Below, piece after piece: positions 31,202-35,411 of a stretch of DNA of 47,623 nt. Below the pieces are notes generated by a model. The model was not told where the DNA came from, searched no databases, and worked only from the letters and a program-made list of their open reading frames with translations. Position numbers and translations under genes: made by a program. The stretch spans positions 1-47,623 of the IMG/VR virus record IMGVR_UViG_2541047816_000005, one strand, 5' to 3'. Origin of the DNA: a virus. Taxonomy: Duplodnaviria > Heunggongvirae > Uroviricota > Caudoviricetes. Numbering within the stretch: the first letter of the stretch is position 1; every line of letters starts with the position of its first letter.

Positions 31202-31630
31202 TCACGGTTTAAAATCCAGCACTCCATTGTGAAATACTTTATATACTTCCGGAGACGGCGGAACTGGTATATCAGCATGCTTCACCGCATTCATCGCTTC
31301 ACGACATAAATCGGGGTCTCCACCTTCTCTTTTAACCTGTAGCAGAAGACCATTCGGGGCCATATACATTCTCAGTGAACACTCTTTTCCTGAATACTTA
31401 CTCGCATCCTTTAACTGTTCTTCTATGGCTTTCCTGACCTGAATGGCATACTGCCTGATTTCTTCACTGGCATCAGGGGTACGTTCCGATGAGCTCAAAT
31501 TTTGCGACTTTATTAATTTATCTGAGTGATACAGAGAAGCATCATAATTATTTGTCGATACATCTTTTGTGCAGCCAGTTGTCAGACTGGCTAATATCAA
31601 AACAAGAACTGGTACAGCACGGCAATACAT
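31202..31630 (-). CDS. outer-membrane lipoprotein with TolA C-terminal (domain III)-like fold
   Basis: lipobox LTTGC with Thr at +2; C-terminal 85 aa align with the TolA C-terminus (GKECSLRMYMAPNGLLLQVKREGGDPDLCREAM...PPSPEVYKVFHNGVLDFKP). Confidence 0.7.
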   Translation of the reverse strand: MYCRAVPVLVLILASLTTGCTKDVSTNNYDASLYHSDKLIKSQNLSSSERTPDASEEIRQYAIQVRKAIEEQLKDASKYSGKECSLRMYMAPNGLLLQVKREGGDPDLCREAMNAVKHADIPVPPSPEVYKVFHNGVLDFKP

Positions 31631-31908
31631 TTATCCATCTCCATATTAACAAGAACAATTATCTATAAAATATAGTAAATATGCGGGATCCGGGAGGACT
31701 TGTAACTATCATCTCCGGATCAGCATGTAGTTTTTATTTTTCCGGATGATATATGCCGCAATAATACCTCTGCATACAGATGCCTGCAAATATCTGCGAA
31801 GCATCCGGCGAGAATAAACAAGGAAGTCTGAGGCTATCTTATATGATAGCCTGTTGCTCAAAAGACAATGATTCACTCATCAGAACCAACAACGCATAAT
31901 GCAGATAA

Positions 31909-31985
31909 TGGACCGCCATCGAGGACTCGAACCCCGCGCAGCCAGCTTCGAAGGCTGGCGCTCTATCCCGATGAGCTAATGGCGG
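31909..31985 (-). tRNA. tRNA-Arg, anticodon UCG, CCA encoded
   Basis: hand-folded cloverleaf: acceptor CCGCCAT/ATGGCGG, D-stem GCTC/GAGC, anticodon loop CUUCGAA, T-loop TTCGAGT, 77 nt. Confidence 0.7.
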
Positions 31986-31994
31986 TATGTGATA

Positions 31995-32070
31995 TGGTGG
32001 CCCTTGCTGGATTTGAACCAGCGACCTGGCGATTATGAGTCGCTCGCTCTCACCACTGAGCTAAAGGGCC
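31995..32070 (-). tRNA. tRNA with anticodon CAU, most similar to tRNA-Ile2 (ileX-like)
   Basis: GGCCCTTTAGCTCAGTGGTGAGAGC...CTCATAA...GGTTCAAATCC...GGGCCACCA; close to ileX as recalled; 76 nt. Confidence 0.7.
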
Positions 32071-32110
32071 GGGCGCAGGATAATAACGGTACGTAACTAA
32101 TTCTGCAATA

Positions 32111-32449
32111 TCATCCGTTCTGACTGACTAAATCCTGAACTTCCCGAACCGTCTGCTCAAAACGTTCAGTCTCCAGCTCAACGCCTGTAGCACGACGGCC
32201 CAGTGCCAGTGCAGCTTTAACTGTTGAACCTGACCCCATAAAAAAATCTGCAACCAGGTCACCCGGACGACTGCTTGCGCTGATTATCTGCTGCAGCATT
32301 TCTGCCGGTTTTTCGCACGGATGTTTCCCGGGATAGAACTGCACCGGTTTATGCGTCCAGACATCGGTATACGGCACCTGCGCCGTCACGCCAAAATACC
32401 GCCGCAGTCGGCATTCACAACCACCAGCGCATTTAACGTTCAGGCACAA
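32111..32449 (-). pseudogene. C-terminal fragment of a DNA N4/N6 methyltransferase
   Basis: 112 aa with HPCEKP and DLVADFFMGSGSTVKAALALGRRATGVELE motifs; no upstream ORF supplies the N-terminal catalytic motif. Confidence 0.5.
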
Positions 32450-32899
32450 AAAAACCCGCTCGACGGCGGGTTTAAGCTGTGTGACGAAGTAACCACTCTT
32501 AACAGCATAACCAATTTTTTACGTACGTAAACTACTAAATGATATTTGTGAGAATGCCACCGAGTGTTCAAAACACCACCACAAATACATAAGAAAACTT
32601 CAACAAATAACCAATGAATAATTTCCGATGTTATTTTTAGGTTGTTTAAATTAAGCCAAAAAATTATAGGGCGCTTATAAATAAGTGTCATTAATATAAA
32701 TTAGCTAATAGATTTATTTTTGTTCAAACAAGAGCCATGAATAGGATTAGATAGAAAAGGTTCAGATAAAAATAGAGATCTACGTCACAAATTAAATGAG
32801 AAACTAAAACTTACATCTTGAAATAATCACATTGATTAGATGAATATTTATCGCGCAGTGACATCATTTTTTTATAATAGTTCAAAAAAAGGGCGTACA

Positions 32900-33982
32900 A
32901 TGAAAAAATTAACAGTGGCAATTTCTGCTGTAGCTGCATCAGTACTGATGGCGATGTCTGCTCAGGCAGCTGAAATTTATAATAAAGACAGTAACAAGCT
33001 GGATCTATACGGGAAAGTTAATGCCAAGCACTACTTCTCCTCTAATGATGCAGATGATGGTGATACTACTTATGCTCGTCTTGGCTTCAAAGGTGAAACC
33101 CAAATCAACGATCAACTGACTGGTTTCGGTCAGTGGGAATATGACTTCAAAGGCAACCGTGCTGAATCTCAAGGTTCTTCCAAAGACAAAACCCGTCTTG
33201 CATTTGCAGGCCTGAAATTTGGTGATTACGGCTCAATCGATTACGGTCGTAACTACGGTGTAGCATACGACATCGGTGCGTGGACTGACGTTCTGCCAGA
33301 ATTCGGTGGTGATACCTGGACCCAGACAGATGTGTTCATGACTGGCCGCACTACTGGTGTTGCAACTTATCGTAACAACGACTTCTTTGGTCTGGTCGAT
33401 GGCCTGAACTTTGCTGCTCAGTATCAGGGTAAAAATGACCGCACTGACGTAACTGAAGCCAATGGTGATGGTTTCGGTTTCTCCACTACTTATGAGTATG
33501 AAGGATTCGGCGTGGGTGCAACCTATGCTAAATCAGATCGCACTGACGGTCAGGTCGCCTATGGTAAGAGCAAATTCAATGCCTCCGGCAAAAATGCGGA
33601 AGTATGGGCTGCAGGCCTGAAATATGATGCGAACAATATCTATCTGGCTACCACATATTCTGAAACTCAGAATATGACCGTTTTTGGTAATAACCATATT
33701 GCAAACAAAGCACAAAACTTTGAAGCAGTAGCACAATATCAGTTTGACTTCGGTCTGCGCCCATCTGTTGCTTACCTTCAGTCAAAAGGTAAAGACCTTG
33801 GTGTTCATGGTGACCGAGACTTAGTCAAGTATGTCGATGTCGGTGCTACTTACTACTTTAATAAAAACATGTCCACTTTTGTTGATTACAAAATCAACTT
33901 AATTGACGATAGTAAGTTTACCAAAACAGCTGGTATTGATACCGACGACATCGTCGCTGTAGGTCTGGTTTATCAGTTCTAA
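32900..33982 (+). CDS. OmpC/OmpF/NmpC-family porin (prophage-encoded)
   Basis: signal peptide [38 protein letters not shown] start and C-terminal VAVGLVYQF; start set at internal ATG 32900. Confidence 0.9.
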
Positions 33983-34119
33983 TCTGACTTACGAAAAAGA
34001 TATGTTGCGGGAGGCTTTGCCTCCCCAACATATAAGTGGAGCCCTCAAGCCACTTCCTTTAGAAGCACTACCTTGCTTCTTACTATATAAACCTTCTGTT
34101 ATATATTACCCTTTATTTT

Positions 34120-34145
34120 GGGGGCGTTTCCACGCCCCATTTTTA
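34120..34145 (+). terminator. rho-independent terminator-like hairpin downstream of porin, adjacent to the Q stop
   Basis: GGGGCGT-TTCC-ACGCCCC followed by ATTTTTA. Confidence 0.35.
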
Positions 34146-34170
34146 ATAACTTTTAGTAAACAATTGCATA

Positions 34171-34554
34171 TCAATTAGAATTATTAGCAACGATATCCAT
34201 ATCTAACCGGATATCTAATGCCATTAACATCCCTTCAATTATGCCCTCAGCCTTCTGTAACCTTTTCCCGATATAACCATCCGAGCAGCAATGCTTACTT
34301 GCCAGTGACATGAATGTCATACCACATACATAATAATCTACTAATAAATCGTGTAAATCGCTGTTGTTCTTTTTCAGACGGGCCATGCACCCGCAAATGA
34401 TCATCGCGTCATCGTCACAACATTGCGGGCGAGATTTTACTTTTGAAGGAATTAATCCCTTAAAACCGGCAGCAATGGACGACCAGGTCACATCCTCATG
34501 ATTATTTGCCGCCCATGCGCCCCAGCGTTCAAGAACCATCTGAATATCACGCAT
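34171..34554 (-). CDS. late-gene antiterminator Q (QuuD/phage-82 type)
   Basis: [26 protein letters not shown]...[13 protein letters not shown] matches QuuD as recalled; start ATG shares one base with the upstream stop (TGATG). Confidence 0.8.
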
Positions 34555-35411
34555 TATTCGCACTCACCAACCAGATTGAGAATGACCGCTGCACCGTCGT
34601 CTTCCATGCATTCACCCTTACCACTTGCCAGAAACCAGCGGCACACCTCCACGGCTTCAGCGCGTGTCACCGGTTTGATGGTTGCCAGCAATTTTTCAAG
34701 GTAGCGCTCGCGGTCATATACCGATTCGTGATGCTCAGAGTAACCAAACTCATCGCCCTGTTCTTTAGTTGCAGTGTGGCGAACACTGTAGAGCCAGTCC
34801 CAGTAAACGAACTCGCGAACAACATCAGACAGCGTATAAGGCTCAGGCAGCACATCGCGATATCCATCAACAAATGCCCGACGCTGTTCATCAATTTCGT
34901 TCATGCGGCTGCCGCCAATGCTTCCGGCTTTTTTCTCTGCCGCAGTCCAGCCCCAGAGATGATCGTTGATAAATTTCTGGGAAGACCTGATGACCCGCTC
35001 TGCTTCCACATCTTCGAGCGCTGCTTCATAGCTACCAAACGTAGCCCTGACTGATGCCGCTTTTTTGATGTTCTCCCGGGCGTTCCTGATAACCTGCGCA
35101 GGGTTATCCATGCCGATGATGCCGAACGCAACTTGGAAAGGTTCGTAACCATTCGCCAGCAGATAACGCGAATAGCGTTCCTGAGCCTCTTTTGGGGAAA
35201 TTTTAATTTTCACCAGCGCAGCCTCAGCAGCATCCAGATGTGCGGGTTCGTTCAGACGGATAACCTCCAGCACCCAAAGATAAGCATCAGTCTGCTTATG
35301 CCCGGTGATTCTCCGTTGCTCTGGCAGGGGCTTGATGTTTGCGAGGGCGGAGCTGTACGCTGCCGTCGGGATGGTGAATAGTGCTTTATGTTCGTTATTA
35401 TCAGTACGCAT
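34554..35411 (-). CDS. hypothetical protein (285 aa) coupled to Q
   Basis: long ORF in the early-right operon; no family recognised. Confidence 0.55.

Follow-up and report, generated by a model that had tools for sequence, protein, structure and literature searches.

The IMG/VR record IMGVR_UViG_2541047816_000005 (Caudoviricetes) holds 47,623 nucleotides (nt) of viral DNA, all of which were analyzed and are referred to here as the window. The window represents a lambdoid prophage of Escherichia coli whose late genes lie on the minus strand, and the subject of this analysis is the head of its late operon, between the antiterminator gene Q and the lysis genes. An initial annotation had described positions 31202-34563 as the slot where Shiga toxin (Stx) phages carry stxAB, filled here with a porin gene, a truncated methyltransferase gene, two tRNA genes, and a gene for a TolA-like lipoprotein. 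In the late direction, the order of features is Q, the opposite-strand porin, the methylase fragment, a tRNA(CAU), a tRNA-Arg(UCG), the TolA-like gene, the small RNA STnc100, a NanS-p gene, DUF1378, DUF826, and the lysis genes. Pfam, Rfam, ARAGORN, and the Prokaryotic Genome Annotation Pipeline (PGAP) place all five listed items and Q where they had been located, except that Q begins at the ATG at 34554 used by PGAP and K-12 QuuD rather than at the upstream GTG at 34563. The 4.1-kb region is 100% identical to several RefSeq chromosomes, such as that of GN02050, a human blood isolate. Probably, the region forms the head of a lambdoid prophage's late operon, with its regulatory elements and cargo, in an extraintestinal E. 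coli lineage, and was recombined from circulating phage modules. Its architecture is ordinary for lambdoid phages, has annotation in RefSeq already, and is accounted for by modular recombination; a modest novelty lies in a lipoprotein carrying TolA domain III (TolA-III) in the toxin slot and a lipoprotein with a TonB C-terminal domain elsewhere in the same prophage.

Q, the porin, and the predicted late promoter

The Q gene (34171-34554, minus strand) encodes a QuuD-type antiterminator (Pfam PF06530, Phage_antitermQ, E=7e-54) with 96% amino acid identity to K-12 QuuD and 81% to the Q protein of Sp5, the Stx2 phage of strain Sakai. It matches the Q21 structures 6P18 and 6JNX (E=4e-8) and thus has the fold of the Q21 structural family. 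Convergent with Q is an intact general porin gene of the NmpC/Lc/OmpD type (32900-33982, plus strand; Pfam Porin_1, E=2e-151), whose product has a signal peptide and a C-terminal Phe and belongs to the OmpC subfamily of NCBIfam (521 bits versus a cutoff of 484). Its DNA is 98.7-98.8% identical to many sequenced lambdoid phage records, several of them listing a propagation host, and 87% identical to the IS5-disrupted nmpC of DLP12. A terminator-like hairpin for the porin transcript was found by the terminator scan at 34121-34138 (plus strand), in the convergent gap between the two genes.

On the far side of the porin lies a predicted late promoter, pR' (32504-32531, minus strand), with a -35 element TTTACG at 32531-32526 and a -10 element TATGCT at 32509-32504; alignment with the Sp5 promoter puts the predicted transcription start site (TSS) near 32497 (minus strand). 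The late leader and candidate tR' follow at 32445-32497 (minus strand), where an intrinsic terminator is predicted from a hairpin at 32473-32452 and a U-run. This hairpin was found by the terminator scan and folds at -16.4 kcal/mol. A block of ~75 nt (GTTAAGAGTGGTTAC...AAACCCGCCG..CGGGTTTTTTT) is common to the window, PhiR49_1, PhiR49_2, phi296/Sp5, and Stx2a_1447; the window has a single copy of the conserved block, at 32503-32445 (minus strand; GTTAAGAGTGGTTACTTCG...AAACCCGCCGTCGAGCGGGTTTTTTT). Genome frequencies, here and below, were counted among 5,426 complete E. coli genomes, and the leader is present in ~2,885 of these, with DLP12 included.

Assignment of pR' and tR' was anchored on Sp5, in which the 3' end of the StxS transcript at tR' has been mapped by Term-seq 258 nt downstream of pR' (PMC7547250). 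In Sp5, the conserved block begins 22 nt past the Q stop codon, and the TSS derived from the 258-nt distance, corrected for a 142-bp coordinate shift between RefSeq versions, falls on the block's opening bases, 7 nt downstream of a -10 element reading TATCAT. The -35 element of the window is the same as that of Sp5 (TTTACG), and because the QuuD-type Q is 81% identical to Sp5 Q, a homologous target site is to be expected. The leader of the window also aligns within the nmpC-essD gap of DLP12; the regulatory region of the DLP12 lysis operon was taken from this gap, upstream of essD, and its expression has been reported to be Q-controlled (PMC7918800). From these homologies we place the predicted pR' and tR' in the interval bounded by the porin and the methylase remnant, a position that would leave the porin outside the Q-dependent transcript.

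The late control region of the window, as predicted, consists of the -35/-10 pair, the conserved leader, and a hairpin with a U-run at approximately +25 to +52, a geometry like that of phage 21, whose Q is the prototype structure of the family. The two phages share the Q structural family and the succession of promoter, short leader, terminator, and tRNA genes; the annotation of phage 21, which derives from experiments, lists a -35 element, a Q-binding element (QBE), a -10 element, the TSS, and a terminator at +2 to +49 followed by tRNA genes, along with a sigma-dependent pause. Phage 21 differs in that its promoter and leader are not alignable in detail with those of the window, its tRNAs are Asn and Thr, and its Q-pR' interval has no cargo.

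We refer to the interval from the Q stop codon to pR' as slot A. A porin occupies this slot in the window, DLP12, PhiR49_1, and ~20 other sequenced phage records, and Sp5, phi296, PhiR49_2, and phage 21 carry no insert there. Stx2a_1447 has two opposite-strand open reading frames without a Pfam match between Q and the same leader. The arrangement in the window, a quuD-type Q convergent with an NmpC-type porin and then the late leader, is that of the DLP12-type Q-porin module: DLP12 (quuD-nmpC-essD/rrrD/rzpD) and the porin-carrying lambdoid phages PhiR49_1, 4A7, ev017, and others share with it the Q gene (96% amino acid identity to K-12 QuuD) and the convergent Q/porin pair, and DLP12 and PhiR49_1 further share the leader-terminator element that separates the porin from the late gene after it, with 87-98.8% DNA identity over window positions 32450-34556. 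In DLP12, however, IS5 interrupts the porin and the holin gene comes right after the leader, whereas the window has an intact porin and, past the leader, a segment of Stx-phage type (methylase remnant, tRNAs, cargo, STnc100, and nanS-p).

Under the arrangement we favor, Q would be made from the early rightward transcript and act at pR' (~32531-32504), 1.7 kb away and past the porin insertion, allowing RNA polymerase to pass the promoter-proximal terminator (32473-32445) and later terminators. A single late transcript would then cover the methylase remnant, the two tRNAs, the TolA-like lipoprotein gene, STnc100, nanS-p, and the lysis and structural genes, and the porin would be transcribed independently of Q from a promoter of its own. 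Were pR' instead immediately downstream of Q, which is the arrangement in lambda, 21, and 933W, the porin would belong to the Q-dependent slot, and late transcripts would run antisense through its gene and silence it by transcriptional interference on induction. In most characterized lambdoid phages pR' does abut Q, as in the phage 21 annotation and in Sp5, and the 188-bp gap between Q and the porin offers room for a promoter. That gap, however, contains no late promoter or leader, only the hairpin with a T-run on the plus strand that serves as the predicted porin terminator. The one copy of the conserved leader in the window is located beyond the porin, and in Stx2a_1447 and in DLP12/PhiR49_1 the homologous leader is likewise found beyond opposite-strand cargo. 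We regard a promoter abutting Q as highly improbable in this prophage.

The tRNA array and the stx slot

Downstream of the candidate tR', the 3' remnant of a methylase gene (32111-32407, minus strand) is followed by a tRNA(CAU) (31995-32070, minus strand), called by ARAGORN and Rfam (72.5 bits), annotated by PGAP as tRNA-Ile, and identical at 76 of 76 positions to ileZ2 of Sp5. This ileZ-type gene encodes a tRNA-Ile2 that is predicted to read AUA after lysidine modification. The acceptor pairs C4-G69 and C5-G68, which are TilS determinants in tRNA-Ile2, can both be read from its sequence. The next gene, an argN-type tRNA-Arg(UCG) (31909-31985, minus strand; ARAGORN; Rfam, 55 bits), is identical to argN2 of Sp5 at 76 of 77 positions. 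Beyond it, alignment with Sp5 and phi296 reveals a degenerate relic of the 5' half of argO (tRNA-Arg UCU) at 31852-31895 (minus strand). The relic, ~45 nt long and ~70% identical to argO, runs into an unrelated 8-bp hairpin and escapes detection by ARAGORN and Rfam; NCTC9112 has the identical relic, and the 3' half of argO has been replaced. Apart from this relic, no third tRNA, AsxR, or stx remnant was found in the window by ARAGORN, Rfam, and tblastn. In mEp460_ev081, ileZ and argO are kept and argN is absent, the reverse of the loss in the window.

The replacement of argO marks one end of a low-G+C cassette of 809 bp (31079-31887, minus strand), delimited by its breakpoints against phi296, Sp5, and Stx2a_1447 and by the G+C profile (38-43% in the cassette versus 52-56% in the flanks). 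It contains the TolA-like gene and 278 bp of sequence upstream of it. Homology to Sp5 stops inside argO and restarts 46 bp past the stx2B stop codon. The stx-negative phage phi296 has an empty version of the same site, which we call slot B, with an intact argO; a 126-bp stretch containing argO is replaced in the window. By these comparisons slot B, located after the tRNA array, is the predicted true stx slot, in which the TolA cassette would stand in place of the 3' half of argO and stxAB.

The view that all five items share the stx slot thus had to be abandoned: pR' and tR' are placed between the porin and the methylase remnant, and only the TolA-like gene is at the position of stxAB, because the breaks in Sp5 homology bracket the 3' half of argO and stxAB. 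Nor are the methylase gene and the tRNAs cargo, since the series methylase-ileZ-argN-argO is a conserved backbone of Stx-type phages. The absence of toxin genes was borne out, as tblastn with Stx2A and Stx2B against the whole window gave a best E of 1.6; the intergenic gaps of the region are too small for stxA, and no stxA or stxB lies between the tRNA array and nanS-p. The two slots would follow distinct logics, with cargo in slot A (here the porin) independent of Q and cargo in slot B (stx, or here the TolA-like gene) dependent on it. This distinction should help in reading Stx-like prophages and in predicting which cargo is co-induced with the phage.

Past the cassette, Stx-phage synteny resumes. 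STnc100 (30826-31032, minus strand) is a prophage small RNA scoring 158 bits against Rfam RF02076 (gathering score, 47), and in Sp5 a member of the same family is found just after stx2B. The NanS-p-type sialate O-acetylesterase gene (28642-30603, minus strand; Pfam DUF1737, SASA, and DUF6645; PGAP) precedes DUF1378, DUF826, and the lysis cassette and is syntenic with genes of Sp5, phi296, and Stx2a_1447 annotated as NanS or hypothetical. The Stx-phage backbone of Q, pR'/tR', ileZ/argN/argO, nanS-p, and holin is therefore present with argO as a relic, at 76-95% identity to Sp5, phi296, and Stx2a_1447. With Stx phages of the Sp5/933W and Stx2a_1447 types, the window shares this backbone order, near-identical ileZ and argN, syntenic STnc100 and nanS-p, and a homologous pR' leader. 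Unlike them, it lacks stxAB and an intact argO, carries a porin between Q and pR', and has a TolA-III lipoprotein gene at the toxin position. Also unlike them, it shows no AsxR at the Rfam gathering score and lacks the 3' part of the StxS transcript (Sp5 locus L011, 1100-1314).

These likenesses could suggest descent from a Stx-converting phage by loss of stxAB, with the TolA cassette and argO relic marking the replacement and the methylase remnant reflecting the same decay. The cassette has Stx-phage homology on both flanks, the tRNAs differ from those of Sp5 at one position at most, STnc100 and nanS-p are syntenic, and the limits of the cassette bracket exactly the argO 3' half and stxAB of Sp5. 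The same backbone is, however, widespread without stx, being found in phi296, PhiR49_2, NCTC9112, and a second prophage of the same genome, and tblastn detected no stx fragment in the window. The argO relic, at only ~70% identity to argO, points to an old event or another donor. Moreover, the sequences do not tell which way the swap went: stx may have given way to the tolA-like gene, the reverse may have occurred, or each may have been inserted independently into an empty site. We consider descent from a toxin-converting phage improbable, and favor assembly from modules in circulation among E. coli phages.

The second lambdoid prophage of the same genome (NZ_CP095505.1, 107117-110028; L015, 7118-10029) has Q, tRNA-Ile, and tRNA-Arg followed by different cargo. 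There, DUF3927, an opposite-strand gene for the anti-adaptor IraM, and a truncated DUF1737/nanS-p remnant precede the holin gene, which amounts to another filling of the same slot.

Module boundaries, inherited scars, and codon usage

The characterization of the region as a mosaic island stood, as adjoining tracts match different phages. Positions 32450-34556 are 98.8% identical to the DLP12-like phage PhiR49_1; positions 31888-32504 are 94% identical to PhiR49_2, and the portion at 31888-32407 is 95-96% identical to Stx2a_1447 and NCTC9112. Then come the TolA cassette and a Stx-phage-like tract (30496-31078) with 92% identity to phi296. The conserved leader (32450-32504) is the sole overlap between the PhiR49_1-like and PhiR49_2-like tracts, and for this reason it is the likely crossover point of a short-linker exchange. 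The region would thus be a clean example of modular exchange at a short linker, the pR' leader. Because the full 4.1-kb layout is present in only 17 of the 5,426 genomes, it is not a common ancestral arrangement; its individual modules are common. Some match to the TolA cassette was found in 897 genomes, and 121 matched it at a coverage of at least 80%.

The methylase remnant matches Pfam N6_N4_Mtase only at profile positions 135-220 of 221 and corresponds to residues 254-352 of 352 (the last 99) of a beta-class N6/N4 DNA methyltransferase when aligned to the full-length gene of NCTC9112. It lacks the catalytic DPPY (residue 35 of the full-length protein) and keeps motif I, FMGSG (residue 310), so that the joint DPPY and FxGxG signature of a beta-class enzyme is not found; PGAP annotates it as a pseudogene with a missing N-terminus. 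Upstream of the remnant, the edge of the deletion is formed by a 42-bp sequence relic (32408-32449, minus strand) with ~68% similarity to the post-tR' sequence of Stx2a_1447. Owing to this resemblance, the scar is best described as an apparent internal deletion of ~1.1 kb, from just past tR' into the methylase gene.

An identical deletion junction is present in PhiR49_2, a phage record listing ECOR13 as host, and the junction between tR' and the methylase remnant was found in at most 82 of the 5,426 genomes, counted at a coverage of at least 80% of a 181-bp junction probe. The truncation is therefore inherited and did not arise in this prophage. The initial annotation was right to suspect a gene-decay scar, as scars are present, but wrong to the extent that this implied decay local to the prophage. 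Pseudogene scars of this kind can be inherited parts, present in sequenced phages such as PhiR49_2, rather than signs of local decay. Sp5 and phi296 have an even shorter methylase remnant of 99 bp. In NCTC9112, the TolA cassette and its junction with argN stand beside a full-length methylase gene, and from this it follows that the methylase and argO scars arose independently.

Differences between the remnant and its relatives are mostly synonymous (synonymous to nonsynonymous, 17:4 and 15:2 against full-length alleles, and 12:3 against PhiR49_2, whose copy is equally truncated). Their positions are clustered in a 55-nt patch (fragment nt 168-222) in which the window differs from all three comparators. 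This suggests that the synonymous bias reflects recombinational import from intact alleles rather than function, with residual selection as the alternative.

We propose a history in which an ancestral backbone of the order Q-pR'-tR'-methylase-ileZ-argN-argO-[slot B]-STnc100-nanS-p would have undergone a cassette swap with loss of argO's 3' half, a deletion of ~1.1 kb that began shortly past tR' and ended within the methylase gene, and a crossover in the conserved 55-bp pR' leader that joined the QuuD-porin module.

Retention of the two tRNAs might be explained by codon demand in the late genes, for AUA in one case and CGA/CGG in the other. Codon usage in the annotated prophage genes was compared with a 7,804-codon sample of 25 host genes from the same genome. 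AUA is enriched 2.1-fold in all prophage genes (p=2e-4) and 1.7-fold in the late genes (p=0.02), CGA 1.9-fold and 1.75-fold, and CGG 3.1-fold and 3.65-fold (p about 1e-10 to 1e-12), so the codon-usage comparison that the initial annotation had suggested for AUA and CGA does show enrichment. The highest enrichments, however, are those of AGA (5-6-fold) and AGG (18-21-fold), the codons of the argO tRNA that is lost here, and AUA peaks in the early-left genes, at 14.4 per thousand versus 6.4 in the late genes. The TolA-like gene itself has four AUA, two AGA, and two AGG codons and no CGA or CGG. As the AGA/AGG reader has been lost and AUA is richest in early genes, codon matching is at best a partial rationale for the tRNAs, and we give selection for late-gene demand a limited chance of being the reason that these two were kept.

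The TolA-like lipoprotein in the stx slot

The product of the TolA-like gene (31202-31630, minus strand) is a protein of 142 amino acids with a Pfam TolA C-terminal match (E=4e-23). It is composed of a signal peptide with the lipobox LTTGC, a linker of ~33 residues, and a copy of TolA domain III. Residues 54-142 align without gaps over 89 residues to residues 333-421 of E. coli TolA (PDB 1S62, 3QDP, 1TOL, and 3QDR) with ~55% identity (E=1e-26). At that level of identity, the solved TolA-III structures settle the fold. C84 and C109 correspond to TolA C363 and C388, and the C-terminal LDFKP, with D418 and K420, is identical, all of which identifies a domain III. In TolA, D418 and K420 belong to the site for TolB binding, which is also used by g3p and colicin N (PMC4339652). 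The signal peptide comprises residues 1-20 and ends at a typical lipoprotein processing site (MYCRAVPVLVLILASLTTG followed by C-T-K); the lipobox cysteine is conserved among the full-length family members aligned. With Thr and not Asp at position +2, acylation and sorting to the outer membrane are predicted.

Compared with E. coli TolA, the protein lacks domains I (transmembrane) and II (helical), the match being confined to TolA 333-421, and has a lipoprotein signal peptide and a short linker instead. The RefSeq name "cell envelope integrity protein TolA" is therefore an over-call, with TIGR02794 matched only at profile positions 266-362. Without coupling to TolQR, the protein would not be expected to transduce energy. 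It belongs to PHROG 5772, to which no function is assigned, and the ratio of nonsynonymous to synonymous substitution rates (dN/dS) between family members is 0.26-0.40, which indicates that the gene is maintained by purifying selection. In all four contexts inspected, the gene lies in the interval between Q and holin in the late orientation. Literature searches returned no relevant publication on a phage TolA-III or TonB-C-terminal lipoprotein.

In E. coli H7 (L012, 5456-6430) and mEp460_ev081 (L003, 2956-3930), STnc100 is located upstream of two tandem TolA-III lipoprotein genes that abut the holin gene, and in both cases the second gene is divergent in sequence from the first.

We propose that the TolA-like lipoprotein is a decoy for the Tol system. 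Fixed to the outer membrane and lacking a link to the TolQR motor, such a TolA-III would rival TolA in binding the TolB N-terminus as well as incoming domains of colicins or filamentous-phage g3p; the outcome could be protection of the lysogen or a loosened outer membrane at lysis. A second candidate is encoded downstream of the lysis genes, where a small lipoprotein (24717-25043, minus strand) has the lipobox LVMGC and a TonB C-terminal domain (Pfam TonB_C, E=1.4e-14). Homologues of it, all uncharacterized, are found in 15 phage records, among them phage 21 and Stx1a phages. It is possible, and we suggest it only tentatively, that the two proteins are tethered decoys or dominant-negative competitors against Tol- and TonB-dependent import of colicins and phages, and represent an undescribed class of exclusion or colicin-tolerance factors. 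If true, one decoy of the pair would sit in the exact slot used by Shiga toxin, and approximately one sixth of complete E. coli genomes would carry a prophage factor altering colicin or phage susceptibility or outer-membrane integrity.

A rival explanation, which we consider rather unlikely, is that the TolA-like lipoprotein is a late accessory of lysis and release instead of a lysogen's decoy. Produced from the Q-dependent transcript shortly ahead of the lysis genes, it would by titrating TolB weaken the Tol-Pal link that joins outer membrane to peptidoglycan and aid outer-membrane disruption, vesicle shedding, and the release of progeny. It would account for the late orientation of the gene immediately upstream of the lysis genes or nanS-p in each context inspected, and for the paired genes directly before the holin gene in H7 and mEp460_ev081. 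The TolB-binding strand is conserved, and leakiness is seen in TolA mutants at D418/K420 that no longer bind TolB (PMC4339652). The outer membrane is, however, already handled by spanins, and the AT-rich 278 bp upstream of the gene, in which there are a promoter-like match at 31790-31761 and a good ribosome-binding site, would fit a moron expressed in lysogens. The cassette has the deviant G+C content of a moron, and its promoter, as predicted, is a single weak match at those positions; the terminator scan found no terminator between the TolA-like gene and STnc100. Like the morons or conversion lipoproteins Bor, Lom, and Cor, this is a small envelope gene of deviant G+C content between conserved late genes, but Bor, Lom, and Cor have known phenotypes and the TolA-like gene has none known. 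We continue to prefer a decoy role for the TolA-III lipoprotein.

Several points weigh against the account given here of a Q-dependent slot B occupied by a Tol decoy. The reported Sp5 transcript is 258 nt (PMC7547250), so transcription in lysogens evidently passes the homologous first hairpin of that phage, and because of this read-through the tRNAs and the TolA-like gene could be constitutively transcribed. A promoter closer to consensus, ATGACA-17-TATAAT, is present at 32691-32663 (minus strand), 160 nt upstream of the assigned pR', and could be the real late promoter. The decoy role is purely inferred, and the contacts made with colicin A are only partly kept (K379 and K396, but not K368, D377, or P380; contact set from PMC3365938). 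It is not possible to say in which order the three recombination events took place. Finally, the holin gene (27749-27964, minus strand) has a 1-bp deletion near ~27870 relative to GN02050 (GGGCGGCAA to GGGCGCAA) that shifts the frame of this class II holin after codon 37. The variant is found in none of the 5,426 genomes, in which the best match, at 99.4%, differs by the same single gap; it represents a private mutation that inactivates the gene or else an error of sequencing, and unless it is the latter, this copy of the prophage may no longer complete lysis.

The ATGACA-17-TATAAT site was not adopted as pR', the Sp5-anchored start being located 160 nt further on, though it could also be a second late-strand promoter yielding a leader RNA of ~210 nt. 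Promoter-like matches in this AT-rich stretch are at chance level, with 7 found versus 7.9 expected from shuffled sequence. The site lies within the divergent region between the porin and pR', which has a G+C content of 28%, and is largely conserved in PhiR49_1.

Two other parts of the prophage differ from what is usual or from close relatives. The genes upstream of Q (34554-38039, minus strand) are not the usual nin/rusA set and include a DEAD/DEAH helicase (552 amino acids), a toprim/zinc-ribbon primase-like protein (322 amino acids), and a 285-residue member of PHROG 6204 with no assigned function; homology to DLP12-like phages ends exactly at the Q start codon. The portal region (16993-19253, minus strand) differs from that of GN02050 by a 324-bp indel or repeat; in the window it reads as two overlapping open reading frames of 454 and 299 amino acids, and the GN02050 portal gene is annotated by PGAP as a single frameshifted pseudogene.

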